The notes: generated by a model not told the origin, from the sequence alone. Shown: positions 3,151 to 51,688, counted from the stretch's first letter. The stretch is 64,000 nt of DNA from Eledone cirrhosa (GCA_964016885.1 OZ024743.1:219418001-219482000), one strand, 5' to 3'. Numbers and translations are program-made.

Positions 3151-3349
3151 ATGAATTGTGAAAAGTTAAAGACAGAAATAGAAAATTCCCGCTCAATGAT
3201 ATACGACAGGGATGGTAACGGTTTTATTGTTTATTATTATAAAAAAATTCCCATTCCAGACGTTCCAACCATTCCATCAGTGGTATCAAACATTCAATCA
3301 TTTCCTCTGAGACATGATGACATTTTTATTTGTGCATATCCTACTGCTG
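3151..3349 (+). CDS. SULT exon 1 (start codon to 5'-PSB loop YPTAG)
   Basis: ATG at 3151; [14 protein letters not shown]; donor G|gtaagt after 3349. Confidence 0.88.
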
Positions 3350-6300
3350 GTAAGTTATATATATCTTATTTTTACATCGTGCTCTATAGTAAGTAATATA
3401 TGAGGAGAAACACACCTTTGTCTTTTACTTTATGCAACATCATTATTATAATGAAGCTATTGTAGTGACCTACATTCCGCGGGCTCACATACATTCTCTG
3501 TGCGTGATTTGGCTCAGTTCAGCCAATCAGCGCCAGTAGAAGAGGATGTATCCCTACGCGCCCTGAGGAAGAAATTCCCCGCGAAGATTTGAAGAATCTC
3601 TCTCTTGTACCAGAAACTTCGAGCCAGCAACACGCATAATGTAACAGTGAGATATTGCACCCCTAGCCTTGCCGGCTTAACGGCGCAATGGCACATTCCC
3701 TTTTGTAACCTCTTTTTATCTGTAACTTCAACCATATAAATAAACATACATTTCATCTCTAATTACTGCTGTTGAAATCATTATTATGTTACTCGTGTCT
3801 CAATAACATCTTTAATCCATGCTGCTGGAATTGGCGACCTGACGAAAGGAATATTGTAAATAGATGGTAAATAGATCGAGGGACCTTCCCTCACGTCTAT
3901 GTCAACAAGATAATCCAACGAGGATACTATCACTTACCACACTGGCAACTAACGATCATCAATCATCTACCCTGTTAAAGTAACGACCACTGATTCTATC
4001 ACCCTGCTAAAGTGGCGACTGCTCTATAACCAATACTGCTAAACTATTGTACGTATATCTGTATATGTAACCAAAACACTGCCAGCATTCCTCCCAACTT
4101 CTTATAACCCCCCCCCCCCCCAGTAACTCATATCTCACATTGCCCCTTACACAAACTTTCTCTCTGAATTAGTAGAAATAACTAATACATCATACCCCTT
4201 CTCACATCTTGCTCTCTAGTAATATATGAGAAACACAACACAACAAAAACTACTACTATCCTTCTGTCCCTTTGTGTTCTGAAGTGAATCCTTACTGAGT
4301 TCAACTTTTCCTTTATCTGTACCAATATTAAAAACTATTATTTGTTTCACTGTTTAAACAATAGAGAAGGGAACTGACTATGACTCCTTTCAGGGCCTTT
4401 GAGCACGGGTGAATTAAGCTTGCATGAGATCCCTGATTAACTATTTCATTGGGGCCCTTACATTTTATTTATGGTGGAAAAAAATTAATTAAAATAATGT
4501 GGGATGTTTTAGATATTGTCAGATCCTTTAAATATTGTGAGATCCTTTAGATATTGTAAAGTCCTTTAAGTATTGTAAGATCCTTTAGATATTGTGAGGT
4601 CCTTTAGATATTGTGAGGTTCTTTAGCTATTGTAAGGTCCTTTAAATACTGTGGGACCCTTACTTCGAAGACTGTTGAAAGGGAAGGAGGAAGGCATTTC
4701 AAATCAAAGATTTGGTCCATAAGCTTGTAACAGAGTGGAATCCACTAAAGGTATATAAGGACCAGTGGTAGTGTTAACCCTTTAGCATCCAAACCGGCTG
4801 TAACTGGCCACTCATACTGATGTTAAGGTATTGTTCTCAAAATAAATATCAAAATCTCATAGATTCTATATTATGTGAGATAATTATGTAAGATAAAGCC
4901 TTTACCGTGAACATACAATAACATATATAGAGTAATGTAAATGCTAAAGGGTTAGATTAGGAAATAGGTTACTATTAACACTGGATTAGTTGGTGATGAA
5001 ACTGATGTTAAGGTATTGTTCTCAAAATAAATACTTTCAAAAACTTATAGATTTGATATTATGTGAGATAAAGCATTTACCATGAAAATATAATAGTATA
5101 TATAGAGTAATGTGAATGCTAAAGGGTTAATTAACATATTTCTAATATGAAATACATTGCATTTCAATTAAATAATGAAAAATTTGGAAGGATTTATTTA
5201 AATTAATTACTACTTCATTATTAAGATGGCATTTATAACATAACTTAACAAACGGTTCTTATGACAAACTATGTTGGAAGATTTAAATTTAAATAGGAAT
5301 TCTTTTAAACAGTAGTGTTTTACCCCTAGAAAGAGAGGCAGTAGTTTTATAAGTCTGTTCTGTCACTTGGTGTTACAAGGTGCAATCTACTTCGCTACCT
5401 ACAGCTTAGTATGTGGTTTATCTGGCCATTTACAGTTCAATATGCAATCTACTTTAATTTCAAAAATGTTATACTGTAAGATGATAATAGAAGTTGATTA
5501 ATGTTAAATAATGATTTATTATTAATGACATTTAATTATCAAAATCATAATAATCATAATCATCACAAAATGATAAATAGTATATCAAAAACACGTTAGC
5601 TGAGGTCATGAAACACAGATCAAGTCATTACATTTCATATAGGTCATTCACATTCTAGACTATAGATGCTATAGTTGACTGGATACTAAGTTTGTTCCAT
5701 TTAATGTGTGCATTTACTTATTTGTGTGCAATGTCTGTATTATTGCTACTTAATAAAACAGTGACTATCTCTTATATAAAACCATTCACAACAAAGTATA
5801 TATTTTCTTTGTTTGATTATTACAGGTACACATTGGATATGGGAAGTGACTAGCATGATTGTCAAAGGGAAAGCTGAGAGGATCCCAAGTATCAAAGAGG
5901 AATATATGGTGGATTTTGTAGAGTTTGAAAATTTTGAATCATTGGAATCACCACGAGTGCTGAATTCTCATTTTCACCCAAGCATTCTCCCTGAGAAATT
6001 ACTAAAGGACAACAAAATTATCTTCATTGCACGCAACCCTAAGGCTGTGGTTGTATCTTATTACAGACATACATTTGGTATAACAGAAATTAACTACAAT
6101 GGAAATTTCCCAAGCTTTTTTGAGCTGTTTATGAAGGGTGAAGGTAAATATTGGCTTTTGTTTCGATAAGCTAGAAAGTTACTTTCCCAAACTCATAATT
6201 TGAAGCTTACAAAATAGCATTATTGATGTTTGGCCTCTGTTCAACTGTATTCAAGTTGATCTATGATCAAAGGCATTAAAGCTGTCACCATTCAATCTTT

Positions 6301-9017
6301 CTAAACTGAGTAGATTTTGTGGTATCTAATGATACTGTGATACTCTTTAACATGCATGATGGTGATGTTGAAAATAATGCAATGAATGTGTGTATGATTC
6401 AAGAAATGTCATGTTGCAAGTTCATGCCCATTGATAAAGCAAAATTGTGAAATACAAAATGTGTGTGTATGTAGGTGTTTGCATGAAAAAGAGACAGATA
6501 GGCTAATGATGTGAGTGAAGGGTTTCCAGAGAGTAAAATATGATAGACATGACAGGCTGTCAGTCAATTGCTATTGAAGTCTGCAACTGAATAAGAGGAC
6601 TGGAGCTAGAAGTACTAACCTTTATATCAGAAGGGGATGTCATGCTGTGGTTGGTAAATTTCACAGGTTTTGCACAAAAATTAATGCATATAGTATGAAA
6701 ATTACTGTAGTTTCATACTATAACAACTTAGCTAATGTATGATTTCGCTACAGGTATATTTCTAAAGGATAAAGGCTGACTTGTTTATCAAATGCTAGTG
6801 AATATAACATATTTATTTTCTCTTCCATTCTACAGTTGCTGCGGGTGATTATTTTGAATATTCCAGACAGTGGTGGCCAGTGCTAAAAGATAACCCAAAT
6901 GCTTTGATAGTAACATATGAGGAGGCTTCAGAGGTAAATGATACAAATATATACTTCATATCGATTTCATCTTCATTATAATATTGACATTATAGTGGTG
7001 CATAGTAGTGACATGTGGAGGTGTGTGGTCTAGTGGTAAGGGTGTTGGATCTATGATCATAATGTCATGGGTTCAATTCCTGGACTAGGTTGTGTGTTGT
7101 GTTCTTGAGCAAAACACTTCATTTTACATTTCTCCAGTATACTCAACTTAAAATAAGTACCAGCAGCAATAGCTAGGGGTTTAACCCTACAATGGATTGG
7201 TGTCCTGTCCAGGAGGAAGACTTGTACTTTCAGTCGCTTCAAGCCATGAAAACTGGGATAAGCCCCAACCTGATGGGCCCCTAGGTTTGTGACAGACTTT
7301 AGATAGTAGTGGCATAGATGATTCACTGAATTGCTGATGATACATAAATCATTTGAAACCTTGTTACTGTATCCCCCACCCCAAGGCAAGGTACATCTCC
7401 TCTGCCTAAGTATATGCACTTAACATAACATATACAACCCCTGTATGGCTGGTGGCTGGGTATTTAGCATCCTAAGTTAGCCCTTTAGCGAACTCACCCT
7501 TCTTCCATGAGAACAATCTATTCTTCCAAATATAATATTTTTAACTTACAGTTTGGCAAGCTGACAAATCTAATTTTTGACACTTTTTCCTCTGAGTACA
7601 CTAACATAAATTATTAAGCCTGTATTTTCTACTACACAATCCACGCGCACTCATGCCAAACCATATTACAGGTCATAAGATCTTATGGCCCTCTCCATCA
7701 CTTTGGATATTTCCACAATTTTTTTACATGGCATAGATGTTTTAGTGATTTATTTATTGATTGCAAGAAATTGTACTGGGGTCAGTACAATTAATATTCC
7801 CCTCTCTTAACTTGCTGGCCTTTTGCCTATATTAGAAACCGTTATATACTATTAGTTAAATGACTATAAAAGAAAACTGATGAGTCAACTTACATTGTCA
7901 ATGGAGTTTCTTCATTGTATCGAGACTATGTATATCCCTAACTTATATTTCAATTCCATAATTCCCTGTATAAACTTTAATGTTTCCCTTATATTTGCAA
8001 TCACTTCTGTTTTCAAGAATCTACAAAAGATGGTCTTAACAATCGCAAAATTTCTTGGTAAGGAAATTTCAAATGAATTTGCTTTGGAAATTGCGAATAT
8101 GTGTTCGTTTGATAAAATGAAAAAAGAAAAGAAAGTAAAAAAGGAAAACTTCCTTAAAGTCACATTCAAGGAAAATTATAGCTTTTATCGTTCAGGTAAG
8201 CTCACAAATTTAGTTTCTTCTTGTGATCTTTCATCCAATCTCTTCATCATAAGCTTTTTTTTTTTTACTACAATGAGTTACCATTTTTATTACAAGTTGT
8301 TACTATCTGTTGGTTCCAATTCCTAACAGAAGGAAATGAGGTTTTGAAGTAAGAATGTACAGGGCCAGATCAAATACTGTAAAACATTCCGCCAATCCAC
8401 TACCCCCAGGACTGGTGGTATTTCATTTACTGATGCCAAAAGGACGTAAAAGCAGAGTTGACTTTTTGGTTCTTCTATACTTTCAAATACATTCTTTCTT
8501 AGTACTGTCACATATTTGTTGTCAGTACTATTGTATGTGAAAGTGAGTAATAATTGATACTTCAAGATAAAACTATTAAAGTGAAATATAATAATTTTTT
8601 TAACCCTTTAGTATTTACATTACTCTATATATATACTATTGTATTTTTATGGTAAAGGGTTTGTTTATCTTATATAATTATCTCACATAATATTGAATCT
8701 ATGAGATTTTGGTGTTATTTATTTTGAATACAATACCTTAACATCAGTGTGAGTGGTCAGTTATGGCCAGTTTGAACAGAAAGAGATGAGAGAATTCTGG
8801 CCAGATATAGCCAGTTTAAAGTCTCCCTTCTTAGACTGCTTGGCCATCCTGACAGCTCAATGCAAGCATGGAAAAACAGACATAAAAACAATAATGATGA
8901 TAATATAAACAATAAATATAAAATTGAAAATAAGACATTTTCATGTTAAAAGTGAGCGATTGTTATGAGGACTTTGTATAAGATGTGTCTATATTTATGT
9001 CTCCAAACGTTTTTGGT

Positions 9018-9057
<40 letters not shown>

Positions 9058-10510
9058 AGATTTGTATATACACGGGTTGGACAAAATAATGGAAACACCT
9101 TAAAATTTAAAACAAATTTATTTTAATATGGGGTAGGACCGCCTTTGGCAGTAATTACAGCTTGAATCCTACGAGGTATGGACTCGTACAAAGTTTGAAT
9201 TGTTTCCAAAGGAATTTTCGTCCATTCTTCAGCTAAAAGAGTCTCCAGTTCTTGTAGTGATGTTGGTGGTGGATATCGACTCCTTACTTGTTTTTCTAAA
9301 ATGCACCATAAATGTTCAATAATATTGAGATCTGGGGTCTGTGGTGGCCAGATAAGATGTTCAACTTCACTAGAATGTTCCTCGTGCCATTCAGTAACAA
9401 CTTTAGCTGTGTGAATTGGTGCATTATTATCCTGAAAGATTGCGTTTCCCTCTGGAAACAGTTCCGCAACCATAGGATGAATTTGATCGGATAAAATGCT
9501 TAAATAGTCTTGACTATTAATTTTGCCATGAAGGGAAACCATTCGGCCGGTGGATTTCCAAGATATAGCCCCACAGATCCTCCTCCATGTTTAACAGTTG
9601 GAAGAAGGCAGTCTGGGTCAAATGCTTCTTTTGGCTGTCTCCACATGTATACTCGGCCGGTGGTCGGAAATAAGGTAAAGGATGACTCGTCTGAGAAAAT
9701 AACATTCTTCCACTGCTCTAGGGACCAATTCTGTAGGTTTTACTCCACTCTAAACGCTCTGCAACGTTTGTTTTTGAAAGTAGTGGTTTTCTGATTGCAG
9801 CCCTTCCGTGAAATCCGGCTTTGTGCAGCTCCCGGCGAACAGTTTTTGTGGAAACTGGGTTCTCGAGATGGTCATTAAGCTCTGCAGTAATTTTGGGAGC
9901 TGTACTTTTGTGATCCTTTCTAACAATTCGCGTAACAGTCCGACGGTCCCTATCTGAAAGTTTTGGTTTTCTTCCGGAGTTTTGTTTCGACAAGGAGGTT
10001 TTTCCCTCTTTCTTAAAGGCTGTCATTACTTTCGAGACAGTACTTCTTGATACACCAAACATTTCGGCTGTTTTCGTTACGCTAGCGCCTGCCATACGAG
10101 CACCAACAATTTGACCTCTTTGAAAGTTCGATAGATCTGTCATTTTAATGAATTTTAATTACCTTTTTCTGATGATATCTAAAAATAAACAGCAATTTTA
10201 ACAAAACATATTAAGCAACACTAATAATAAATAAAAAAACATAAAAATAAACAAGCTTTTGACGGTTTTATAGATATTTCAAAATTATGATGCTATGATG
10301 CTAGGTGTTTCCATTATTTTGTCCAACTCCTGTTTATGTATGTATGAGATTTGTATATATCTGTTAGAACACGAAAAGTGTGAAACAACAGAATGTTCAC
10401 TTTTCGTGTTCTAACATATATGCCTAACTTCTTCATAAATTTTCCCGGGATAGCCGTGGTGGTGGTGATCGTATGTCATTGGCTAATTTTCAACCAATCA
10501 GAGTAAGTGT

Positions 10511-10556
<46 letters not shown>

Positions 10557-11858
10557 TATTCCCCCTCTCTCTATATATATCTTACGCTTTCGCTTTACAC
10601 TCCTCCCCTTCAATAACACATTTCCCCCTCTCTATATATCTCTTCCACTGTTACTTACGCCTGTTTCTCTCTATCTGTTCCGTCTCTATATATATCTCTC
10701 TTACTCTTTCGCTTTGCACTCCTCCCCTTCAATACCATCTCCCCCCCTCTCTATATATTTGTTACTCTATCGCTGCACGCTCCTCTCCTTCAATATATCA
10801 ACACCGCTTTACACTCCTTTATCCCCAGCGCCCCTATATATACCCCCCCCCCTTCCCGCATCTATATTTTAATGTTCCGTTGCACCGTGAATATATGTGT
10901 CTATATATATATACATATATATTGTATATACACATTCATGTATGTGTATACACACTCATGTATGTATATACACTGGTTTTATGTGTGTATTGTAAATTTG
11001 TACTGTTAAAACACGAAACTAACATTCGATTGACACTTTGATTACCTGTACAGGCAATAGTTATTAGAATGCTGTTGAAGTGTGTATATATTTTTGGGGG
11101 ACATCCTGTATATACACACATTATATATAATACAATAAACAGATAAATACACACATATATATATGACCTTATTTAATTATAAATATTGTGAATTTTTAAC
11201 TCAGTTCAATTATATATATAAATGGCTTCTACAGGACTAGAACTGTTTCATTCGAAAGAAATCATCATAATATTGAGAGGGGGGACTAGATAAAATATTT
11301 CAAATCAAATGTGTATAAGTTATAAGTTAAAATGTATAAATAGAGACGATAGTGGAGGTATATCTGTTTAGTAGAACAGTAGACGATAGAATTAAATACA
11401 GACGAGAATCTCCCTTTAATGAAACAGCAGACGATAGAATTAAGGCAATTTAAATTTTAAGCATTTGCATTTCATCGCTACGGGGTCGATAAAATAAAGT
11501 ACCAGTAATACACTGTCACTATAAGTAGACGACTTTCAAATTGAATTGTTGGTTCCATTTCTTTAGTATTTTCAATTGTAGTTATCTACTTAAAAAGCGT
11601 TACACGGTTAGAGACATAATTGGTAAGTTATATCTTCCCTATTAAACCATTGCATTATTTCGCCTACAATAGAACAAAAATGAAATGTTCTTTAAAGAAA
11701 CAGGAATATAACTTTATAAAAAAAAAAGTTGCATCCGCTTCTTTTATCATTGATAATTTTTTCGTTTTAATATTAATTGTTTTTTGTAGTTGTTTATATT
11801 AAAAATCTTACTGTAATATTTACTTAAACGAAGGCAGACATCTAAACTTATAAATAAA

Positions 11859-11898
<40 letters not shown>

Positions 11899-14800
11899 AT
11901 ATATATATATAATATATATATATATATATAAACGAAGAATGATAACATTTCAAGCAAAGAGTTTAATTAGGTAATGACTTACAAATTTGTTTCAGTATAT
12001 ATTTAATATAATATTAATATATTTTGTAATATTATTAACTAATTATTATAATTAGCGCTTCAGGCTTTGTCTATATACTGAAACAAATTTGTAAGTCATT
12101 ACCTAATTAAACTCTTTGCTTGAAATTTTATCACTCTTCGTTTTGAATTTCTCCTAAGTATTCAATACTCTGTTGAGAAATACATTTTACATAAACAGTC
12201 TTTGTACCATTTATACGGTATTAATTACTTATATTTATATATATATATATAGCGTATGATTAGAACTGTGTTTATTATTAATATTTTAATGGATTTAATG
12301 AAAAATTTTAGGTGTTCATATATATATTCTAAAAATGCGCGAAATCGTGAATCCGCGATAGTTGAACCGCCAAGTAGCGAGGTATCACTGTATATATGTT
12401 TAAATATATAGTGTAGCTGTGATGTATCTCGCGAGTGAATCGAGACCTGTCACTGATTTTGGTGTCCCCACTGCCGATGTGAATGAGCAACGCTGCACTT
12501 GTGAATTGGGTCTTGATGTTGCAGGCAGTTCATATACTTACAATGATGCGGTTCCACAAGCTTGTTCACATTCCTGTGCTAATAATCTAGATGGGCGTAT
12601 TAAATTGGATGTGAAAGCAGCTTACCGGATGCGGAATCGGGAGAAGTTGAAACAAAAACAGGCCGATTATAGAGCTGTGAATTTTGCTAAATTAACACAA
12701 AAACAGGCCAAGTATAGATGTTCAAAACGGTATGAGTTGGCAAACAAGCAGGCCAAGTATAGATCTGCAAATTCAGCTATTATATCTCAAAAGCAAGCCG
12801 AGCGTAGAGCTTCTAAACGTACCGAGTTGGCTAAAGAGCAGACCAAGTACAGATCTGCAAATATCTTATTGCACAAACAATAATTCTGCACAAATGTTGC
12901 TCCATTATTAGATCTAATGTTGCAACGATACAGTTAAATGTTGTCTGTGTATTTTAAAAAAGATTTGCTTATAATCTTTTCAAATTTCATTACGCCAATG
13001 ATTCAAGCTCAAATTGACATTATCTAAAAAATTGTACAAACAGCGGTGGATTAGCAGTAGTGAACAGATAAATCAGTCAATTTATTAAGATTGACTTGGC
13101 ATCAATCAGCAAGACCTTCATTAGCTGCTCGCCAGCCATCTATTTAAAGCTGTATACATCTATGGTACGAATACACTTGGAGTTCGCGTCATCAGTCTGG
13201 AACCTCTATCTTGCTCAGAACATTGACCTCCTGGAAACTGTTCAGAGACATGCAACCAAGCGCATACCCTCCATCAGACACCTACCATACCCTGAATATT
13301 TTGCTTCCCTCTGGCAATGGACTTGGTAAACACCCACAAAGTTATTAACCATCCGACCAACAACAACCCCGAACACCTTTTTGATCTCCATGTGTCTAAC
13401 ACGTGGACATGCCTACAAAGTCAGAAAACAACACAGCTCCCATGACTTTAGGAAATATTTCTTCATGCTCAGAGTTGCTGAAGGATGGAACAAACTTCCT
13501 GCATCAGTTGTTAGCTGATGACACACTGCATCCTTTAAAACCATCATACATTCCGAAATACACCAAAACTACACCTGATGTCCCCCTTCCATACACATGC
13601 ACATATGTGTATATCATGACTCATGCACTGTTCTTTTTTCATGACGTTTTTATATTACCCTATGTATTATATATGCACTTTTGATGAGTTGTAGTGCACC
13701 TCAGCATTGTACACAATATTTTCATTATTATTATCATTATTATTATTACACTCATTGATCCATTTTGCACTAACTCTGCATCAAGCACCCTCACCTAAAT
13801 ATTAACCAATCAAGGATCCAACACAGCTATCTGTTGGATGAGTATTGTATAGTGCCAAAAACGAAACCAATCAGTTTAGCAGAAAGTTTCCAGACAAGAA
13901 ACACGCATATTTTGCTATCCTCAAACACGTTTACACATGGCATGAAATATAACTAATCCGAGATGGCTAGGTTTCATCTTCTAACTGGATATACGAAATC
14001 CATTATGTCTTGACAACAACATGAGGTAACATTATGTTATTCACAGACACACTTTGTACACTGTTCCATATCAGAATGTATTTCCTTCGTCACATTCACA
14101 AACAGTATTGAAAATATGTTCTTCGGCAAATAAAAATGTTTTGTTCATAATATTTCAACTAGCGATTGCTCTACTCCACGCACGACCACCATAAATTAAT
14201 GACCAGCTCAACACAAGTATTGGTAGAGCGTCAGACACCATGCTTTGCAGTATTGTTATGGTCCTTTGCATTCTAAGTTCAAATCCTGCCGAGGTTAACT
14301 TCGACTTTCATACTTACTAATTCGATAAAATAAAGTACCAGTAATGGACTGCCGTAATGGATTTGTGCCGAAAAATAGAAACACTATTAATGTGCAATAA
14401 GAGCAAAATATAACGACATTGCTCAATTATTTTATCTAATGTTGTAATAACACAAGGAAATGTTGTTTGTGTATTTTTTTTTATATTTGCTCATAGGCTT
14501 TTACAATTTCGCTCAGCCAACAACTATTAAAAAGTGAGTTGCTTAAGATAACAATTTAATCACAAATTGTTGCTATCTTTTAATACACTCCAACAAGTCA
14601 TCAAATTATGTACAATAAAAACAAATCTTATTAATTTGCTCAGGGAATATAAAGAAAATGTATATACACTGATAATTGCAATTGTATGTAAATATTTTGT
14701 TTTTGTATTGTTTATTTTATGTTTTCTATTATGTATAATATATTGATTTAATATTGATTGTTTTTTGTAGTTGTTTATATTAAAAGTCTGAAAATATTTT

Positions 14801-16166
14801 TATACATCTTACACTAATATTTATAAGATAATTTATAATAACAATTACATAATCTAATTACATTACAACGATAATTTATTATTAATATATATCCTGTTTA
14901 ACTAGAGTTATTACAAGCGTTGCCTTAAAAAAATATTAAACTAGACATGAAAAATGCGCAAGCTCAAAAGTGCCACAGAATGTTATAATAAACCTTCAAA
15001 AGTGTGGGACTAGAGTTGTTGCTAAAAAATATTGTAATCATAGTAATCATTATATATCGTACATTCTGTGGCATCCTTTATAAAAATAGCTTAAACCAAC
15101 GAAGCCTTTATTTTTACGCTATTTCACTTAGTTAATTCTTAGAGTGTAACATATAAAAATAAATACATCTATGTTTAATGTAATAACAGCTATAAATAAT
15201 TACGTAATATTATTATCATATACTCATAGTAACAAAATAATTGTGTTGAAAATTAATATGATGCTTATATGAACGATCAAATCTATAATGATAATTTCTT
15301 AAATATACTAATAGTAAAATAATTTAGTTATCTATTGTTACATTTTCATAGAACTATAATATTAACAATCGTATTGCATTATCAAATTTTTATCACTACA
15401 AACTTTCATATTGGAATTACCTTAAGCCACTTATTATTACTTCGCTTTCGTACTTTTACAGCTGTAGATATTGCGCTGTATCTTATATCTAATATCAATA
15501 TCTCATGGTAATTTGCATGCAGTGTAAAATAGGTTTATTAATAACTTTAATATGAAATGTATTATACAGGGCTGCGGAGTCGGCCAAAAATTGACTGGCT
15601 CCAACTCAGGATCCGATACTCCATTATTTCCTAAATTTCAGCTCCGCAGCTCTGTTATTATATTAATTAATTTATTTTATAGTTGTAAATCATATTTTTA
15701 TATGTTACACTCTAAGAATTAACTAAGTGAAATAGCGTAAAAATAAAGGCTTCGTTGGTTTAAGCTATTTTTATAAAGGATGCCACAGAATGTACGATAT
15801 ATAATGATTACAATATTTTTTAGCAACAACTCTAGTCCCACACTTTTGAAGGTTTATTATAACATTCTGTGGCACTTTTGAGCTTGCGCATTTTTCATGT
15901 CTAGTATATATATATGTATGAGATTTGTATATATTTATATGTATGAGATTTGTATATATATATATATATGAGATTTGTATGTGATATAAACTGTGTTTGC
16001 ATATAAATATGTATGTATACGCCATTTTCGTTCTCACAAAAATTCCGTTAGTTCAGCATGTGCTAACTAAATGCTGTGATTTTCTATATATGTTAAAAGA
16101 GAGCGATTGTTATGAGGACTTTGTATAAGATAAGTGTTTATATTTATGTCTCCAAACTTTTTTGGT

Positions 16167-16219
<53 letters not shown>

Positions 16220-19200
16220 TATATATATATATATATATGAGATATATATATATATATATATGAGATATATATATATATATATATGAGATATATATATATA
16301 TATATATGAGATATATATATATATATATATGAGATATATATATATATATATATGAGATATGTATATATATATATATATGAGATATGTATATATATATATA
16401 TATGAGATATGTATATATATATATATATGAGATATGTGTATATATATATGTATGAGATTTGTATATATATATGTATGAGATTTGTATATATATTTCTGTA
16501 TGAGATTTGTATATATATATGTATGAGATTTGTATATATATATATATATGTATGAGATTTGTATGTGATAAAAACTGTGTTGAATGTGTTTGCATATAAA
16601 TATGTATGTATACGCCATTTCCGTTCTCACCTCCAACCCACCCACCCCACCTCCAGCACATTCAGTATACATGGCTGATGCTGTATGCTAACCACTCCCT
16701 CGTGTATATATATCATAGAATAGACAAGGGGCGGATGGAGGCTCCGGTAGCCGTAGTGTAGGCAACCCGTCTAGGAGAGCTACCACTCCAAATAAATTGG
16801 TGCGGGGTAGAGAAGTCTCCTAAATCCAGTAAGACAACTTCCCTAGTGCTGGTGGCACGAATAAAAGCACCCAGTCCATGCTGTAAAGTGGTGCTGGTGT
16901 TAGGAAGGGCATCCAACCATACTACTGCCAAAAACTGAGCACAACAAATGAGAATTGCAACAATTGCGTAAACAGCAATAACACTACCCATGTTAGGGCT
17001 GCGCACGGTAGTGGGGTGGCTGGTGCGCCATGTGCGAGAACCCCACCGACCATCATCAAGCAATCGCACAACAGGAGCAAGAACAAGAATATGATGACGT
17101 CGCATCTCAGACTTGCCACACTTAATGTTGGCACTCTAACAGGTAGATCTGGTGAGATAGTGGAGATGCTGGAGAGAAGGCATGTGGATGTGTGCTGCGT
17201 GCAAGAGGTGAGATGGAGAGGTGCCTCTGCAAGACTAATCGCAGGCAAACTCTTAGTTATAAGCTTTTCTGAGTGGGTAATGATGATGGGTTAGGCATTT
17301 TACTGGCTGAGAGATGGATCGATAAGACAATAGAGGCAGTTAGAGTTAGTAATAGAATAATTAAGCTTAGATTAGTTGTAGGCAAGAGACTACTGACAAT
17401 CACCTGCTTATGCTCCCCAGGCAGGCCTAGGTGAAGAAGAGAAAGACTGCTTTTATGAGCAACTTTTACAAACAGCCACAATGACAGAGGATGGAGACAT
17501 CGTTATGCTAGCAGGGGGCTTCAATGGTCATGTTGGACAGCTCCAGGATGGATACACTGGGGTACATGGTAGGCACGGTTATGGCTCAAGAAATGAAGGA
17601 GTGCGGCTTCTTGAATTTTGTGATGTAAGTGCACTAACCATTTGCAACACTAACTTCAAGAAACCTGCCAACCACCTAATAACCTACAAATCAGGCAAGC
17701 ACATAAGCCAGATTGACATCTTGCTAGTTAGACAGTGAGACAGACAGATGGTGTCAAATACTAAGGCATACCCCAGAGAAGAATGTACCCCACAGCATAG
17801 GTTAGTCGTTAGTGACATCTCAGTAAGCAAGAGATGGAATGAGACATACAGGAAGGTGTGGAAAAGAAAGGTCTGGAAGCTAAAAGATCTTTCACTAAAA
17901 TATAAATTTAGGAAAGCCCGTCAAGATATGTATGACGAAAAAGAAGACGATTTAGAGTCATATGACATAGATGATAACTGGAATTTCTTACGTGACAACT
18001 TACTGCAGGCTGCTGAAGAAACTTGGGGCTGGAGCAGAGCTCCAACCAGCCACATGGTGGTGGAACAGCACAGTAGATAGGGCCATAGAGACAAAAGACT
18101 AGCATGGAATGCTTGGAAAAATGGTGGGAGTAGAGAACGATACACAGCCGCTAAGAGAGAAGCTAGATGTCAGGTGTACTTAGTACGCAGGGAGGCTGAG
18201 AGTAGGAGGTTTGCCAATGTTCTGCGACGGGAAGATCAGAGACGTGTAGTGTTCTGCATTGCAAGGCAGTATGTCAATGCAAATCAGGATGTTGTTGGAG
18301 ATAAGTGTCCCTGGAATGATGCCGGTGTACTTGGTGTCACGAATGATCAAAGAAAGGAGGCCTGGAAATTTCATTATGAGAGACTGATGAATGTGGAGAA
18401 CGAATGGGAGAGAGAGAAATTACTCTCAGTAGATCCGACAGAGGGACCAGTTATTGAGATTGACGAATATAGAGTCCAAGAGGCAATTAAGGAAATGAAA
18501 AATGGTAAGGCCGCTGGACCATCGGGGAATAGTTGCTGAGATGCTGAAGGCATCAGGGGACGTAGGCACTAAACTGGTTGCACGCATCATCAATTAGGCT
18601 ATATATGGCGGTGTCATACCCAAAAACTGGTGCAGCAGTATTCTCATAAATTGCTACAAAGGTAAAGGGATGCTCTGGACAGGAGCAATTATAGGGGTAT
18701 AAAACTGATGGATCAGGTTATGAAAATGGCAGAAAGGATATTAGCGCAACTAATTAGAGAAAGGGTCAAACTAGATGAGATGCAGTTTGGTTTTGTGTCT
18801 GGGAAGAGTACAACAGATGCCCTCTTCTTGGTGAGACAACTACAAGAGAGGTTTTTAGAGAAGAATAAGCCACTATACTTAGCTTTTGTTGACCTAGAGA
18901 AGGCCTTTGATAGGGTACCCCGATCTGTCATCTGGTGGTCCCTATGGAAACTAGGTGTTGAGGAATGGCTTGTGAGGACAATGCAAGCTTTATACAAAGG
19001 TGCTGTCAGTAAAGTGAGGCTAAGAATGGAGTTTAGTGAGGAATTCCAGATACAAGTAGGAGTACATCAGGGTTCGGTCCTCAGCCCGCTCTTGTTCATT
19101 ATAGTCCTCCAAGCCATAACAGAGGATTTTAAGACTGGCTGCCCATGGGAACTTCTCTATGCTGACGATCTGGTTCTTATAGCAGAATCAGTAGAGGAGC

Positions 19201-20643
19201 TAGGGAATAAATTCTGGCTATGGAAACAGCAGTTGGAATTAAGAGGACTGAGAGTGAACCTAGCCAAGACAAAAGTGTTGATAAGTAGAAAAGAGGACAA
19301 AACTCTGATTCCATCAGGGAAATGGCCATGTTTGATATGTAGAAAAGGAACTGGCATAAATTCTATAAAATGTACACAATGCAGATCTTGGGTATACAAG
19401 AGATGTAGTGGGATAGCAGGCAAACTAACAAGGTAGGGAAAAATATGTATGCAGTAGATGTACAGGGAAATTTGACAGTAGAAGTTGCATTGATAGACAC
19501 ATTTTTCAAATGCAGGTAGGTTCTATAGAAGTGGTGGATAGCTTCCGGTACCTAGGTGATCAGAAAACATGGGAGGGGAGGTGTGTGTTCCGAGGCCATA
19601 GTATCTAGAATAAGGACGGGTTGGAAGAAGTTTAGGGAACTGCTTCCTCTGCTGACAAAGAAGGGTTTCTCCCTGCATACAAAAGGCCGGTTATATGATG
19701 CCTGTGTGAGATGCACGATGCTGCATGGTAGTGAGACATGGGCAGCAACTGCAGAGGATATGCAATGGCTGGAGAGAAATGAAGCAACCATGCTCCATAG
19801 GATGTGCAATGTCAATGTATGTGAACAACTGAGCATGGATGTGTTGAGAGAGAAACTGTGTTTAAGAGGGATAAGTTGTAGGGTGCGATGGTATGGACAT
19901 GTGATGTACATGGAGGATGACTGCTGGGTAAAGAAGTGGCAAGAAATGCCAGTAGAAGGAAGGCACAGTAGAGGAAGATCACAAAAAACATGGGCGGAGG
20001 TGGTGAGAGCAGACCTCAGATTGCTGAAGCTCACGGGAGAGGTGACAAAGGACCGTGACAAGTGGAGAGATGCTGTGCTGAATAGGACCCGTCCCACCCT
20101 TGCAAGCAGGAAAAAGAGGACGTAAAATGATGATGATGATGACAATATTTTGTAAACTAACCAAATGTTTACACTTCTAGCTTGATGCTTAACCCTTTAG
20201 CATTTACATTACTTTATATTTACTATTATATTTCCATGGTAAAGTCTTTACTTCACATAATTATCTCACATCAGTATGAGTTACAGCCAGTTTGAACAGA
20301 AAGAGGTGAGAGTATTGTGGTCGGATACGGCTGGTTTAAATGCTAAAGGGTTAAACAACCTCTAAAAAGATGGTAATTGGCAAACAGATGGTTCAATACA
20401 CTTACCTGGCTTATGAAAGATTTGTGGTTTGATTTCCACAAGCATCTCTGTCCACTTTTTTCACTGAACAGGGTATTTCACTGGACAGGATATTTCACTG
20501 GACAGAATATTTCACTGGACTTATTCAACTAGTTTTTATAGTTATAAACTATTACTTATAGTTGGTCACATTGTGGCTAACAAATTCCCCTCAATGTTTC
20601 ATAAATTAACCACAAAATGATTGATTAAATAGATAATTGAATA

Positions 20644-20700
<57 letters not shown>

Positions 20701-20761
20701 ATGTGTGTTTGTATATATATATATATAATGTGTGTGTGTGTATATATATATATATAATGTA

Positions 20762-20801
<40 letters not shown>

Positions 20802-21175
20802 GTGTGTGTGTATATATATATATGTATATATAATGTGTGTGTGTGTATATCTATATATATAATTCCCGTTCTGTGTGTGTGTGTAAAAGAGTTTCACTTG
20901 GAAAATATTCCATCCATCTCTGTCAAATTAAACACATAGCCAAAATAGGCTACGGTTTGTAACATAAAGAAAAAATTATTTCATAATGATTAATTTCGAA
21001 GTCACAAACTTCGATTTTATAATCTTATAGGCTTTTGCACTAACAAATTCCATGATGGCCATTAAAGAGAGAGAGCGTTCCTTTTACACACTTCTTAACT
21101 ATCCCCCTTCCACAACACGACGTTATGGGATTGTATGTGTATGTGCGTGTGTATATGTGTGTGTATGTGTGCGTG

Positions 21176-21221
<46 letters not shown>

Positions 21222-24200
21222 TTCCATAACGGCCAGAGAGAGAAGGATGTGTGAGAAGGAGATAGAAAGAGAGGAGTGAGAGAGAGAGAGTAAAATAAAG
21301 AAAGAGAGGAGTGTGTGTGACTTAACTCTCCCCCTTCCACAACGTCACGTCTTGGGATTGTGTGCGTATGTGTGTGTATGTGTGTGTATGTGTGTGTGTG
21401 TGTATGTGTGTGTATGTGTTTGTGTGTGTGTGTGTACGTGCGTATGTGTGTGCGTGTGTGCATGTGTGTGTGTATGTGTATAAATGTGTTAATTGTAAGA
21501 AATAACAGACGATACTTTAGCGATAAATACAGTGTTTATAATTTTAACTTATTTATTACACTTAACTCTCCCCCTTCCACAACGTCACGTCTTGGGATTG
21601 TGTGTGTATGTGTGTGTGTTTGTGTGTATGTTTGTGTGTGTATGTGTTTGTGTGTGTATGTGTTTGTGTGTGTGTGTACGTGCGTATGTGCGTGCGTGTG
21701 TGCATGTGTGTGTATAAATGTGTTAATTGTAAGAAATAACAGACGATACTTTTTATTCAAAAAATTAAACTCTAAAGCAGTTTTGATGTCATAAATCATA
21801 TTTTCAAAGTGAAAATAGTAATTTCTTTAATACTTATTCAGAGGTTGAAATATATTTACTGTTTGTCTATTGGTTTTTAATCAAATATTTACACATTGCT
21901 CAACCGACACTGCTAAACACGATATTAGCAAAATTATTTTGTAAGTATGAAAATCTAATATATAATTCCCGTGTAGAAAAAGCAGATGATAAAATATACT
22001 TTTTCATCTTGCTTATTATTACAAAAATTTACACATTGTACACAACTATATATTTCTTTTAATTGATTTGTATCAGCTTTATTCAATTACATATTTTCGG
22101 TAGAATGCCTCGAAAAAGAAAGAGTAACATTGGAAAAAAACAATAAATGCTTTTGCGTTGCGTTCTTTGCGCGCAAGCGAAACAGAAGAACAATGTGTGC
22201 TACGGCGTGCTCGCAATGCTGCTTCTACCTCGATCGCCAGAGCATTACAAACAACTGAACAAGCAGAACTCCAGCGTGCCCACAATGCTGCCTCTACTTT
22301 GAACATCAGAGCAACAAGGCTTGCGGCTGATTCTCAACGGAAAATGCGTACTTATGTCTTTCCGAGGGATTCTTCCTGTTACTGGTCTAAGAAAGGTTTT
22401 CAATACAAGCCCCAAGAGGACTACGCATCCCATCCACATATCATCATTGGTAGTATGTCAACTGTTTGCGTCCATTGTAATGCAATGAGGTGGCCAGCGG
22501 AATCTACCGGTATATGTTGCTCCAATGGAACGGTTACATTGCCTTATTTACAAGTCGGTGCCGAACCTTTGAATTCTTTGCTGCTTGGAGACCACCCTGA
22601 TTCTAAACACTTTTTCAGAAATATAAGAGCCTACAATTCGGCTTTCCAAATGACAAGCTTTGGTCATACACCAATAAAAGATGGGAATTATATGCCCACA
22701 TTTAAAGTGCAAGGCCAAATTTACCATCAAATAGGATCACTTATTCCACAAGATGGCAAAGAACACAGTTTTCTCCAGATCTACTTTATGGGCAACGGAC
22801 CTGAAGAAATTGCACGAAGGGCTTCAGTTGCTAAAGGAACGACACCTTCTCTTCTGCAGCCCCTTCAATATATGCTTCATTCCATAAACCCGTACATCAC
22901 CATTTTCAAAACTGCTTTACAACGTAGAGATGCTAACAACAATCAATACAAGGTTGTCATTCGAAATGACCGCGCTCCACCAGGGCAGCATCAGGATTGC
23001 TTTAATAGACCCCAAACCGATGAAGTTGCGGTGATTATAACACGTCCTAATCAGAGCGCTTCAAACCGTGATATTATTGAATGGCAGGACTCGCATCTTC
23101 AAAAAATAAATGAACTTCATCCCGCATATGATGCTCTCCAGTATCCATTGCTGTTCCCCTTTGGCGACGATGGCTACCGCATTGATTTGCAAAAGTGTAA
23201 TCCTGTAAGTTTAATGCAACTTACACCAGGGAAAACCATTTCACAAATGGAATTTTATGCATTTAGACTTATGTTTCGCAAAAACGACGTCAACATTCTG
23301 CATAGAACACGGATGCTCCTCAATCAATACTGTGTAGACATATTTGCTAAGATTGACACTGAACGCCTCCAATGGATAAGACATCATCAAAAGGAACTGC
23401 GTTCAGAAGAATACGGCAATCTACGTGACGAAGTAAACCGAAATGATCAGGCTAATGCTTCGGATGTTGGGCTTTCTGTCATTCTCCCATCATCATACAC
23501 TGGAGGCCTCCGTTACATGCATGAAAAAATGCAGGATGCTCTGACCTATGTCCGCCATTGTGGCCGTCCTGATCTTTTTATCACCTTTACATGCAATCCA
23601 AAATGGTTTGACATCCAGTCTCATTTACTGTTTGTCTTTCGGTTATTAATAAAAAAAAATTACACCTTGTTCAACCGACACGGCTAACGATACATTTCTC
23701 TATGTTCATATTTTAATGACACATATCTGTAAATAAAACTTGCTCTTTTTGAATACCGGCTCATTTTGTTTTATTGAAAGAGTTTTTAGCGAAAGTACTG
23801 GGTCACCAATATAGCGAGAATACTGGGTTGTATGAATGTAACAAGGAATACATTGTTTGTTTGTATAATATTTAATTAACAATGGTAGATAGTATAGTTG
23901 ACATGTCAAAGATGAGGATGATAGAATGAAGCAAAGTTAGTAGTTACCGTTTTGATTGCCAGGCAAATGCGGCTGGCAGAGGACGCCTGGCTAAGGCCAG
24001 GCGCCTGTTGGCCAAATGAATGGCAGAGCCAAATGAGAGGCTCTTGGCCTGGTGCCGAAAAGGCAATGAGAGAGTGAGAACTCAAAGTTGTTAGTTTTAT
24101 AGGGTTCTGACCGGAAGTTGCAGAAAGGGTTCTACTTCCCGTCTAGATCCAAACAAGGGAGACAACCGCTACAAGTTGATCAGGTAAAATTATCCTCCAA

Positions 24201-24306
24201 GTTAAACATACAACACGGAAATTGACCATTAACATTGCAGCCCTACCAAGAACTGACACCGTCCAATGGACGGGGGTCATTTGCTAGTATATATATATAT
24301 ATATAA

Positions 24307-24347
<41 letters not shown>

Positions 24348-24460
24348 AATGTGTGTGTGTGTATATATATATATATATGTATATATAATGTGTGTGTGTG
24401 TATATATATATATATATGTATATATTATGTGTGTGTGTGTATATATATATGTATATATAA

Positions 24461-24519
<59 letters not shown>

Positions 24520-24849
24520 TCATCATCGTTTAACGTCCATATTCCACGCTTGCATGGGTTTGGACGGGAGTTTTCCCACTTGAGGCAAGAGTGGTTGTCT
24601 TGCTCGCATAGGACTGTCTGGCGGGTTTTCTACGGCTGGATGCCCTTCCTAACACCAACCACATTTACAGTGTGGAACTGGGAGGTTTTTACCGTGTTAC
24701 CTACACGGCCACATTACAGCGTGGACTGTGTGTTTTTTTGTCGTGACACCCACATGACCTCATTTGTTTCGGCCTGGATGTTGTGGTACCAACATAACTT
24801 TACATTGAAAGGGGCGGTGTGGATGGGGTGGGGGTAGTGCGACGGGGTG

Positions 24850-24902
<53 letters not shown>

Positions 24903-26201
24903 CGACTGAATACGCATGTGTACTTTTTTCTCCCCAATTTATTTTCTCATTTTCCCCATTCCTTCCTCTCATCACTCTTTACTTTCTATTTATCTTCTAT
25001 TTCTAACTCTATTTTCTGATGAAGGACTAATGTCCAAAACGTTAAGATTCTCTTCCTGCTATTTCAAGCATTAAACTAATATATTTCTTCTATGTACTGT
25101 GTCATTTGTTTTGTTATTTTTGTTATTACTTCTACACACACATACACACACACACACATATATATATATATACACACATATATAAAGATAAATAAATACT
25201 TAACTAAATATAATTTAAAAGGAAAAAAATATCAATAAATAAAATAATATAGCTAAATAAAATTAAGAAGAAAGGAACTGTGCAAATATTTGTGTATGTT
25301 GCATTGGTGTTACCTTATTCATGTTTACAGTTGTAACTTGGTTTGTACTCTTGTATGTACACTGTCTCAGTAACTTGACTTAATATTGTGTGGTTGTGTG
25401 GATATATCTAACAGTCTTTTTATTGAGACATTGTGGTTGTCTAGTGTATACTGGTAAAACAAAACAGCTGAAGTAAGTCTTTTCAACATAGCAGTTCCAG
25501 TACTCCCTGAATCCTTCACTAATAGACTAGCATGGTAAGTCAGACACATCCCTCAATATGTCAGACACCATCCACTTGCTTTAAGACCACCTCCATGACT
25601 TAACCTTCCTCCCCAGCAGTGCAGTGTCAGTCCCACAGACCCAACCCCTGCCAATGCCTCACCAGCAAGACAAAGGACACTGAGCCCCCTACTGGTGTAA
25701 TGAGGTAGTGATGGTTATGAAAAAAAGCACCCAGTCCACCATGTAAAATGGTAGTGATAGAGTCATGATAAAATGCTCCAAGTACACACTGTAAAGTGGT
25801 TGGTTTTAGGAAGGAATCCAGCCATAGAAATCATGCTCCCAGCACACATTGTAAAGCAGTTGGCATTAGGAAAAGCATCCAGTCATAGAAAGAAAGCCAA
25901 AACAAAGTGTACAAGTAGGACATTGTCACCTGACCAGTTTCGCTTCAGCACGTGACAGCCATTTAAGCCATGCATGCATGAAAAATAAACATTAAACAGT
26001 GATGACGATGATGTGTTTTCTATGTCGTAGAATTTATGAATTTAACTGAATAGTATATTAAATCTTTTAACTTCAATATATTTATTGTTTGCAGGAAAAG
26101 TTTCTACCTGGATGGAATGGTTGACTGTGGCACAAAGTGAAAGACTGGATGCAAGGATACAGTCTGAACTCATTGATCAAAGAATTACATTTAATATTTA
26201 G
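3151..26201 (+). CDS. Cytosolic sulfotransferase (Sulfotransfer_1 family)-like gene, 5 coding exons, 299 aa
   Basis: Manually spliced exons 3151-3349, 5826-6143, 6836-6933, 8018-8195 and 26095-26201 total 900 nt, with GT-AG introns and consistent phases (1,1,0,1). SULT motifs occur in order: [66 protein letters not shown]...TVAQSE. Confidence 0.92.
3461..4043 (+). mobile_element. Probable solo LTR in SULT intron 1
   Basis: Starts TGTAG, ends CTAAA, flanked by 4-bp direct repeat CTAT; internal AATAAA near 3740; higher GC than flanks. Confidence 0.55.
4510..4660. repeat. ~21-bp minisatellite (gatcctttagatattgtga variants)
   Basis: About 7 visible tandem units. Confidence 0.8.
4778..4951. mobile_element. 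piggyBac-like MITE; family copies also at ~5000-5130, ~8600-8820, ~50560-50724
   Basis: TTAA-CCCTTTAGCAT...ATGCTAAAGGG-TTAG termini; internal sequence shared among copies. Confidence 0.65.
5826..6143 (+). CDS. SULT exon 2
   Basis: Acceptor tttacag|GT; encodes THWIWEV...PRVLNSHF...[11 protein letters not shown]...FMKGE; donor G|gtaaat. Confidence 0.93.
6836..6933 (+). CDS. SULT exon 3 (not in ORF track)
   Basis: Polypyrimidine tract then ctacag|TT; encodes [33 protein letters not shown]; donor gtaaat. Confidence 0.9.
7016..7300 (+). mobile_element. tRNA-derived SINE (family with TTGAGCAARACACT core)
   Basis: A-box TGGTCTAGTGG, B-box GGTTCAATTCC; core shared with 36062-36200 and 38082-38172. 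Confidence 0.7.
8018..8195 (+). CDS. SULT exon 4
   Basis: Acceptor ttttcaag|AAT; encodes [16 protein letters not shown]...CSFDKMKK...SFYRS; donor G|gtaagc. Confidence 0.9.
9071..10332 (-). mobile_element. Tc1/mariner transposon, full length, frameshifted transposase with DD36E-like spacing
   Basis: 30-bp TIRs (ca(c/g)g(g/a)gttggacaaaataatggaaacacct), TA on the left side; transposase pieces 9718-10143 (HTH, SGRKPKL), [10 protein letters not shown] near 9690, and 9123-9542 (QDNNAPIH...[10 protein letters not shown]...[12 protein letters not shown]). Confidence 0.95.
10362..10416. repeat. Short perfect hairpin (19-bp arms)
   Basis: tgttagaacacgaaaagtg ... cacttttcgtgttctaaca. Confidence 0.8.
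11930..12143. repeat. Inverted repeat, ~72-bp arms with 70-bp AT-rich spacer
   Basis: 11930-12001 is a near-exact reverse complement of 12072-12143. Confidence 0.85.
12200..12390. mobile_element. Pogo/Tigger-like DNA transposon end
   Basis: Ends ...gcgaggtatcactg-TA (reverse complement CAGTGATACCTCGC...GCGGTTCAACTATCGCGGATTC), a Tigger-style TIR; partner end not found. Confidence 0.5.
13095..13748 (+). mobile_element. CR1/L2-type LINE 3' fragment
   Basis: [17 protein letters not shown]...[13 protein letters not shown] (post-RT region), decayed; (TTA)n tail. Confidence 0.8.
14940..15905. repeat. Long inverted repeat (~220-bp arms, ~530-bp spacer)
   Basis: 14940-15161 is the reverse complement of 15693-15905 (one short indel). 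Confidence 0.9.
15567..15654. mobile_element. hAT-like micro-MITE
   Basis: TIRs CAGGGCTGCGGAG / CTCCGCAGCTCTG; 8-bp flanks gtattata / ttattata (7/8 match). Confidence 0.6.
16150..16560. repeat. (TA)n-TGAGA compound microsatellite within a dispersed repeat also seen at 8945-9070
   Basis: Visible periodicity; flanking sequence tgttaaaag(a/t)gagcgattgttatgaggac shared. Confidence 0.85.
16700..20141 (+). mobile_element. RTE-clade LINE, near full length, disrupted (APE + RT + Cys/His finger insert)
   Basis: [14 protein letters not shown]...CVQEVRW (APE); [34 protein letters not shown] (RT); (TGA)n tail; multiple stops and frameshifts. Confidence 0.93.
20193..20350. mobile_element. piggyBac-like MITE
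   Basis: TTAA TSD on both sides; TIR CCCTTTAGCATTTA. Confidence 0.75.
22105..23687 (+). pseudogene. Helitron RepHel N-terminal portion, truncated after Rep motif I, no helicase
   Basis: MPRKRKSN start frameshifted in an A-run into the 22158 ORF; CxxC...[62 protein letters not shown]. Confidence 0.9.
23800..24173 (-). mobile_element. LTR plus PBS stub inside the Helitron, same family as 58933-60791
   Basis: Reverse complement reads TGTAGCGGTTGTCTCCCTTG...CTAGACGGGAAGTAGAACCC...CAACCCAGTATTCTCGCTATA-T-TGGTGACCC. Confidence 0.85.
24517..24850 (-). mobile_element. RTE 3'-UTR fragment (family of 51689-55016)
   Basis: Near-identical to 36681-37015 and reverse complement of 54555-55016; (TGA)n tail. 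Confidence 0.85.
25011..25047 (+). ncRNA. Degenerate minimal hammerhead motif (GAAA to AAAA)
   Basis: CTGATGA aggac-taat-gtcc AAAA cg TTA; palindromic AACGTT; stem I weak. Confidence 0.45.
25720..26012 (+). mobile_element. Old RTE/SINE 3'-tail fragments
   Basis: Repeated ctgtaaagtggttgg..ttaggaagg..atccagc module and a gatgacgatgatg tail. Confidence 0.65.
26095..26201 (+). CDS. SULT terminal exon 5 (this frame not in ORF track)
   Basis: Acceptor gtttgcag|GA; encodes [35 protein letters not shown], matching the SULT C-terminal GxxGDWKxxFTVAQxE segment; AATAAA near 26260. Confidence 0.85.
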
Positions 26202-36680: not shown

Positions 36681-38081
36681 TCATCATCATCATCATCGTT
36701 TAACGTCCATATTCCACGCTCGCATGGGTTTGGACGGGAGTTTTCCCACTTGAGGCAAGAGTGGTTGTCTTGCTCGCATAGGACTGTCTGGCAGGTTTTC
36801 TACGGCTGGATGCCCTTCCTCACACCAACCACGTTTACAGTGTGGACTGGGAGGTTTTTACCGTGTTACCTACACGGCCACATTACAGTGTGGACTTTGT
36901 GTTTTTTTGTCATGACACCTACACGACCTCATTTGTTTCGGACTGGATGTTGTGGTACCAACATAACTTTACATTGAAAGGGGTGGTGTGGATGGGGTGG
37001 GGGTAGTGGGACGGGGTATATTTTTGTTAGAGGTGCCTACTGACTGTAGTAGGTTTCACTTTGAACTTAGGTAAGGCGGGTCTTCTGTATTACTGTGTAG
37101 CGCCAAAGATCTCGGTCCAGTGACATTGTCTTGGAGAGGTGTAAGTGTGTGAGGTCGGAATTTATCAAGTCGTCCCAGGTTTTTCTAGGTCTGCCTACTC
37201 CGTGGCTACCGTCTATTTTTATTGCCCTGCACTTTTTTATACAGCTGTCGTCTTTCATGCTCATCACGTGACCATACCAATGTAGTCTTCTCTCGAGTAA
37301 ACAACATCTGATCCCTCTTATTTCTAATTTTTCCCTTAGTTTGTTTATGCTTTGCCGTTCACATATATTACTATTACACATCCAGCGGAGCATGCAAGCT
37401 TCGTTCCTCTCCAGTCTGCGCATATCCTCTGCACACAATGCCCAGGTCTCACTGCCATGTAACATTGCTGTTCGCATGCAGGCATCATACAGCCTGCCTT
37501 TCATTTTTAGAGAGAACCCTTTAGCGGCTAATAGTGGTATAAGCTCTCTGAACTTTTTCCATCCAGTTCTGACTCTAGCTACTGTACTTTCAGAGCACCC
37601 TCCACCACTGCTGATTTTGTCACCCAAGTAACGGAAGGTGTCCACTATTTCTATAGAACCATTTGTGCAATGGAATGAGCTAGTATTCTGTGGGCACTTG
37701 CTGCTACTTATTGCACCAGAGCACCGGCCACATATAAAATCTATATTCTTAGTTAGCTTACCTGTGATCCCACTACATCTTTTATGCACCCATACTTTGC
37801 ATTTGGGACATAAAATGGAGTTTCTACCTATTCCTTTCCTACACACTGAGCATGGCCATTTCCCGGATGGGACCGGTGCCCTATTTTCCTTCCTACAAAC
37901 TAGAACTTTAGTCTTAGACAGGTTAATTTTAAGGCCTTTTGATTCTAGGCCATGCTTGGAATTTCTTCTCTAGTTCAGCCATTAGCGTTAGATCATCTGT
38001 GTATAGGAGTTCCCATGGGCAGCCGGTCTTGAACTCCACTGTTATAGCCTGAAGGGCAATAATAAATAGTAGGGGGCTAAG
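36681..38081 (-). mobile_element. RTE LINE, 5'-truncated (same family as 51689-55016)
   Basis: ORF 37067-37846 is nearly identical to the 53730-54500 region; 3' UTR and (TGA)n tail present. Confidence 0.92.
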
Positions 38082-51619: not shown

Positions 51620-51688
51620 TTAAGTAAACTGTATTCCTCAATGTTTTATCAATAAAAAATGGAAGTATATTCGGTACTAAATATAATT

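Follow-up and report, generated by a model that had tools for sequence, protein, structure and literature searches.

The window, a 64,000-nucleotide stretch of the Eledone cirrhosa genome (OZ024743.1:219418001-219482000), carries an intact, spliced sulfotransferase gene in which Thr stands in place of the catalytic Lys of cytosolic sulfotransferases (SULTs). By homology the product is a cytosolic SULT, and sequence comparison places it in a coleoid clade in which every member seen lacks this residue. We consider it about an even chance (probability ~0.5) that the protein is a pseudo-sulfotransferase, one that transfers little sulfuryl, if any, and serves to bind ligands or to pair with other enzymes. 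The earlier note on this DNA had described an altered gene; what it missed is that a whole coleoid family is apparently involved, that loss of the Lys probably came first, since RNPKD and RKGQVGDWK are intact in basal members, and that Ser204 stands in place of a Lys of the PAP-pocket helix.

The gene (3151-26201, +) consists of five exons (Table 1) that join into an open frame of 299 aa, with a TAG stop ending at 26201. All four introns are GT-AG, with phases 1, 1, 0 and 1, and both this structure and the motifs YPTAGTHW, RNPKAVVVS, NSHF and RSGKVSTWM are as the earlier note gave them. The first and last motifs span splice junctions, the latter as YRSG/KVSTWM. Run X1 has a 729-nt contig, at depth 25.5 and free of mismatches, that joins exons 2-3 and 3-4 at GT..AG sites; exon 5 is reached by a contig of this length and depth, whose loose end matches the end of exon 4. 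The RNA junctions proposed for checking were thus seen in X1 for the exon 2-3, 3-4 and 4-5 joins, but runs X2 and X3 show read-through of introns and no such splice joints; all four runs come from one study, none of the matching runs is registered as RNA, and X1 is taken as RNA solely from its spliced contig, so that its lack of reads over exon 1 carries no weight. Exons 2-5 are spliced, and the exon 1-2 joint is backed by the 5'-PSB loop of the Octopus and Argonauta orthologues, which is identical (YPTAGTHW). A sequencing error at Thr65 is unlikely, the orthologues carrying the same Thr. Between the end of exon 4 and position 40000 we listed nine candidate phase-1 acceptors whose reading starts G..W; a SULT C-terminus is read from 26095 only, and no alternative last exon was found in intron 4.

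Table 1. Exons of the sulfotransferase gene and other features of the window (positions counted from the first nucleotide of the window).
Feature	Position	Strand	Content
Exon 1	3151-3349	+	Start ATG and N-terminal helix; 5'-PSB loop through YPTA(G), with Thr65 (codon ACT) where the catalytic Lys is expected; same motif in orthologues; outside run X1 coverage
Exon 2	5826-6143	+	(G)THW, Lys90, catalytic His115 (NSHF), 3'-PB RNPKAVVVS with Arg136 and Ser144; in spliced contig; PF00685 match
Exon 3	6836-6933	+	Tyr200 (adenine site), Ser204 (Lys in 50/68 Lys-keeping relatives); in spliced contig
Exon 4	8018-8195	+	Cys234, Phe236, cap loop, YRS(G) with Arg263; in spliced contig
Exon 5	26095-26201	+	(G)KVSTWM, dimer motif M271xxxTVxxxE, stop; joined to exon 4 in run X1
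Intron 4	8196-26094	+	17.9 kb; transposon remains and simple repeats
Open frame	22128-23687	+	519 aa, inside intron 4
Transposon remains	9123-9590	-	
Transposon remains	18081-20125		
Transposon remains	30524-31567		
Transposon remains	37067-37969		
Transposon remains	46838-50020		Near-continuous single frame, interrupted by single stops
Transposon remains	51656-54454		

The transposon remains comprise what we take to be part of one Tc1-like transposase and several pieces of LINE endonuclease/reverse transcriptase, and the open frame inside intron 4 presumably represents a Helitron Rep/helicase fragment. Elsewhere in the window (~40000-41900), one short translated stretch is found three times, at 40074, 40951 and 41828, a spacing that points to a tandem repeat with a unit of ~877 bp.

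Cytosolic SULTs carry the motifs YPKSGT, RNPKDxxVS and RKGxxGDWK, together with the dimer motif KxxxTVxxxE. In the window protein, Thr65 occupies the position in the 5'-PSB loop where a catalytic Lys or Arg is expected, whereas His115, Arg136 and Ser144 align with H108, R130 and S138 of SULT1A1, in agreement with the earlier claim that the catalytic His and the 3'-PB Arg/Ser are retained. The C-terminal RKGxxGxxK loop keeps Arg263, Gly265 and its spacing, with K>S, G>S, D>T and K>M changes, and the dimer motif keeps T275, V276 and E280. Against PF00685 (cut-off 22 bits), exon 2 alone scores 64 bits and the Octopus orthologue P0001 189 bits. P0001 is predicted to have the SULT alpha/beta fold (model pLDDT 93.8, pTM 0.92), and its top Foldseek matches are all cytosolic SULTs, with TM ~0.8 to SULT1E1 and SULT1A1.

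The earlier note had also seen a clustered loss at the cofactor site. The loss of Lys65 stands, but the clustering was overstated when PAP contacts are taken from the AtSOT18 list (PMC5482895) and placed on the window protein by motif. Ten contacts are kept (Arg136, Ser144, Arg263, Gly67, Thr68, Trp70, Tyr200, Cys234, Phe236 and Gly265), and Lys65 is the only strictly conserved contact lost. At position 264, where the window protein has Ser, the equivalent AtSOT18 Lys makes a main-chain contact; D>A, G>S and D>T involve residues that do not appear in that contact list (PMC5482895). Among the six changes noted, only Lys271Met is private to the window gene: the orthologues have Lys there, as do 37 of the 39 clade rows. 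The Lys lost at Ser204 is less conserved, and the second Thr of the PAP contacts is His, as in most molluscan SULTs.

In PAPS-dependent sulfotransferases, the PSB Lys or Arg is regarded as the residue that defines catalysis (PMC11625862; PMC3866684), and the Lys helps to release the sulfuryl group (PMC3866684). In AtSOT18, Lys>Ala makes activity undetectable (PMC5482895). The same change in mouse SULT2A8 (K44A) leaves no detectable activity at pH 7.5, and PAP no longer gives a thermal shift; 10-30% of activity is left at pH 5.5 and is abolished only once His48Thr is added (PMC8134075).

The nearest proteins to the window gene come from Octopus and Argonauta. P0001, P0002 and P0003 (80, 77 and 73% identity) group with it at SH-aLRT 94 and have YPTAGTHW, RNPKA and RSGK in common with it, and orthologues occur in Argonauta and three Octopus species. 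A tree of 107 rows, built by quick search, gathers every row that lacks Lys/Arg at the PSB position, 39 in all, on a single branch (SH-aLRT 95). Three motif blocks were dropped from a second tree of 52 of the 107 rows, which removes the circularity of grouping by motif, and the Lys-less clade is recovered at SH-aLRT 99 (LG+G4, quick search; supports are SH-aLRT only). No clade member has Lys/Arg in the loop, and the named members are Octopus, Argonauta and the cuttlefish Acanthosepion (Sepia) pharaonis only. No Nautilus appeared among the named matches in the protein searches, and 'coleoid' here stands for the Octopus, Argonauta and cuttlefish members. Cuttlefish sequences fall at two depths among octopod ones, which places the Lys loss before the octopus-cuttlefish split.

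A wider survey aligned 388 SULT domains from 353 proteins, of which 41 had no loop coverage and 347 were scored at the PSB position: 285 have Lys, 14 Arg and 48 neither. The last group comprises 46 domains of the Lys-less clade, one intron read-through and one unrelated two-domain protein. Outside the clade, Lys/Arg is present in 299/300 scored domains (excluding the read-through), in a sample skewed toward close relatives by the use of clade members as queries. By these sequence counts, the absence of Lys in the clade is not chance. The possibility raised earlier, that the same substitutions are common in active relatives, was checked: the Lys loss is absent from the nearest relatives outside the clade. 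The two-domain SULT, P0241 (530 aa), has a first domain independently without the PSB Lys and the RKG loop and a canonical second domain, a pseudo-domain fused to an intact one. The protein atlas returned generic SULT clusters only.

The cofactor site appears to erode stepwise through the clade. In the earliest-branching lineage only the Lys is missing, and RNPKD and RKG(Q/H)VGDWKN are retained. The Lys goes first, the C-terminal loop next and then Asp134, and the youngest 18 rows add Arg257>His, an order that depends on rooting among vertebrate SULTs. The Arg257 equivalent is thus His in 18/39 clade rows versus Arg in 68/68 others. Position 65 itself is G, T, A, S, C, Y or N (entropy at the 81st percentile), small (G, A, S, T, C) in 36/39 rows and basic in none, with Tyr in two members. 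This drift among seven non-basic residues indicates that no single residue took the place of Lys. We found no clade-specific compensating basic residue at known catalytic positions; Arg85, Arg/Lys147 and Lys266 are enriched in the alignment. Invariant in 39/39 rows are His115, His69, Lys90, Arg136, Trp70, Phe236, Gly265 and the dimer T-V-E; the R-x-G spacing is kept in all rows, and position 144 is kept as Ser/Thr.

Fourteen paralogue models were attempted in this genome and all 14 assembled intact, 10 Lys-less and 4 Lys-keeping, which with the window gene makes 11 Lys-less members among 15 models. Two Lys-less neighbours flank the window gene (C4:219.37 and 219.49 Mb), and a basal single-copy Lys-less SULT that keeps every other motif lies at C5:32.92-32.97 Mb (L034, L035, L047), with XP_029658400.1 as its Octopus counterpart. 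The Lys-keeping copies are four near-identical tandem genes at C3:145.60-145.71 Mb (L039-L041, L048-L052), sister to the Watasenia scintillans sulfotransferase BBB86724.1. Beyond the assembled models there are four further Lys/Arg loci: exons 1-3 were found for one, the frame of another is broken in exon 2, a third is an intronless copy with a frameshift, and the fourth is an Arg-type gene. The intronless copy (L038, C5:17.42 Mb) and the copy with the exon 2 break (L053, C3:159.88 Mb), both of Lys-keeping type, are likely pseudogenes. PF00685 also matches many loci on C1, C3, C4, C7 and C21 (including L081) that we take to be heparan-sulfate 3-O-sulfotransferase-like; all five loops read have Lys, and an expansion is possible.

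The window gene is maintained under purifying selection. Nei-Gojobori dN/dS against its nearest paralogue is 0.39 (bootstrap 0.29-0.54), and against the other eight Lys-less paralogues tested 0.14-0.32, with dS near saturation. The earlier note had called for dN/dS across orthologues; the ratio is well below 1, but it comes from paralogue pairs rather than orthologue DNA, most of them near-saturated in dS. For the branch leading to the gene itself, parsimony gives 31 nonsynonymous against 19 synonymous changes, an uncorrected ratio of ~0.44. Because a Lys-keeping paralogue pair gives an equal value (0.36), dN/dS does not tell pseudoenzyme from enzyme. Selection, the spliced exons and the changes held in common with orthologues bear out the view that this is a maintained protein rather than random decay.

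So, does the protein still transfer sulfuryl groups? In the pseudo-sulfotransferase reading, the leaving PAP would not be stabilised in the absence of Lys65, and at the pH of the cytosol one would expect very slow transfer. The retained His115 pocket could still hold a phenol or steroid, and the Arg/Ser/Trp/Phe site may hold PAP or PAPS weakly, so that the protein might buffer, carry or sense such small molecules. Or it might tune Lys-keeping SULTs through the T-V-E dimer motif. We favour this reading because transfer would be very slow, no new catalytic residue is evident at the site and the cofactor loop erodes in the younger branches; the fixed acceptor His, adenine site and dimer motif fit a protein that binds ligands or partners. 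Separate Lys/Arg SULTs are retained in the same genome and could perform sulfation.

A dimer of the basal Lys-less protein and a Lys-keeping one, modelled without alignments, forms through the dimer motif with a score of 0.72, against 0.01 for the best control; at least 65% of contacts recur between runs, and partner pLDDT is at least 86. In calibration, the score mark was reached by 51/78 solved and 2/108 mismatched microbial pairs, and by 71/105 solved and 2/126 unrelated eukaryotic pairs. The interface is the textbook SULT one and the pair does not include the window gene, so the model offers a likeness to solved SULT dimers, and Lys-less/Lys-keeping heterodimers may be possible.

Several points weigh against the pseudo-sulfotransferase reading. 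The 39/39 invariance of seven residues (His115 to Gly265, above) seems to exceed the needs of a long-dead enzyme. By analogy, the residual pH 5.5 activity of the SULT2A8 Lys>Ala mutant, which has a His at the loop position equivalent to His69, may indicate that Lys loss need not be fatal (PMC8134075). The reported activity of Wscd1/2 (below) counts on the same side. Finally, the dimer-motif Lys of the window gene itself is Met.

The first two points lead to the strongest rival, that the clade consists of true PAPS-dependent sulfotransferases with a rewired site, in which His69 and Lys90 would replace the lost Lys, activity would be slow or narrow on cephalopod-specific acceptors, and the octopod expansion would diversify substrates. 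The invariant residues, together with the kept Ser/Thr144, would suit an enzyme, as would the basal single-copy lineage, which retains all motifs but this one and is better conserved than any other member (84-88% identity among octopods, versus 78% for a Lys-keeping pair). A Lys-less enzyme might also have a precedent in Wscd1/2, which we take to have no basic residue at the PSB position. These proteins are reported active, and the loop residues mutated include no Lys (PMC9304399). Pattern matching, a WSC-domain search and a look at 20 stretches turned up no Wscd-like domain in this genome. However, His69 and Lys90 occur in 57/68 and 56/68 Lys-keeping relatives; they are thus not clade innovations, and in most Lys-keeping molluscan SULTs they sit beside Lys65 and have not made it dispensable there. 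Moreover, Lys>Ala was inactive at pH 7.5-8 in both published cases (PMC5482895; PMC8134075), and the Arg257>His change affects nearly half of the rows. The SULT2A8 activity retained at pH 5.5 until His48Thr is added (PMC8134075) is in its favour; on balance we regard a rewired enzyme as a less likely but serious alternative.

A changed chemistry on the SULT fold is a good deal less probable. CoA binds SULTs, and removal of the Lys could free space by the 5'-phosphate for this or another 3'-phosphoadenosine cofactor, or for the desulfating direction, with His115 still catalytic. The prevalence of small residues at the Lys position and the invariant adenine site, 3'-phosphate site and His115 are compatible with this, and retinol dehydratase offers an example of other chemistry on the fold (PDB matches; PMC11625862). 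Against it, there is no positive sign of another cofactor or reaction, and the two members with Tyr at the Lys position do not fit. Very improbable is an ordinary sulfotransferase that tolerates the substitutions, as the SULT1-like database annotation of the orthologues and the PF00685 score of P0001 would have it, in view of the Lys/Arg count outside the clade, or a young pseudogene, which is ruled out by the open frame, the spliced contig, dN/dS well below 1 and the orthologues in three Octopus species and Argonauta.

A broader reading, which we put forward tentatively, is that coleoids gave a cytosolic sulfotransferase family a new job. The Lys would have been dropped before the octopus-cuttlefish split, the His and nucleotide site kept under selection, and the family expanded in octopods beyond the canonical enzymes, for Lys-independent or non-sulfate chemistry or as a steroid/phenol carrier-regulator system. 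Literature searches outside subscription journals turned up no account of a cephalopod SULT family without the Lys. An old, selected, multi-copy family without the PSB Lys represents either a large animal pseudoenzyme family or natural catalysis that bypasses this residue. Many octopus genes labelled 'sulfotransferase 1A/1C/1E-like' may sulfate nothing, given that 11/15 assembled models are Lys-less. This may bear on the reading of an optic-gland 'sulfotransferase 1C2' in octopus steroid signalling (10.1101/340984). A squid 'Sulfotransferase 1C4' is down-regulated on knockout of a conserved regulatory intron (PMC13652810).

The window protein has 31-37% identity to cytosolic SULTs (PF00685; human SULT1A1/1E1/1C2; molluscan 'SULT1B1-like'), and resembles them in fold, catalytic His, 3'-PB Arg/Ser, adenine Trp/Tyr/Phe and dimer T-V-E. 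Unlike them, it has no PSB Lys/Arg, RNPKD has become RNPKA and RKGxxGDWK has become RSGKVSTWM, and most members of the Lys-less clade have an extra N-terminal helix. Mouse SULT2A8 is similar in the His four residues past the PSB Lys position (the equivalent of His69) but is otherwise the reverse, since it keeps and needs Lys44 and has no usual catalytic His (PMC8134075). The Lys-keeping cephalopod SULT clade (Watasenia scintillans BBB86724.1, Octopus vulgaris P0033 and the C3 tandem array) shares the five-exon plan and intron phases, but keeps the Lys, the Asp and RKGxxGDWK, forms a separate branch in the tree and has 35% identity to the window protein. Vertebrate SULT4A1, which presumably retains its PSB Lys, is single-copy, whereas the family of the window protein is multi-copy and has lost the Lys; the origins are independent. 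SULT4A1 is a conserved protein that shows no activity in assays yet binds catecholamines, a likeness to the window protein if the pseudoenzyme reading holds (PMC1847840). In SULT4A1 the adenine Trp is gone and the C-terminal PAP loop is shorter (PMC1847840), whereas Trp70 and the loop length and R-x-G spacing are kept throughout the Lys-less clade (39/39). SULT4A1 is thus a working precedent for a pseudo-SULT reached by another route, a comparison of function rather than of membership.
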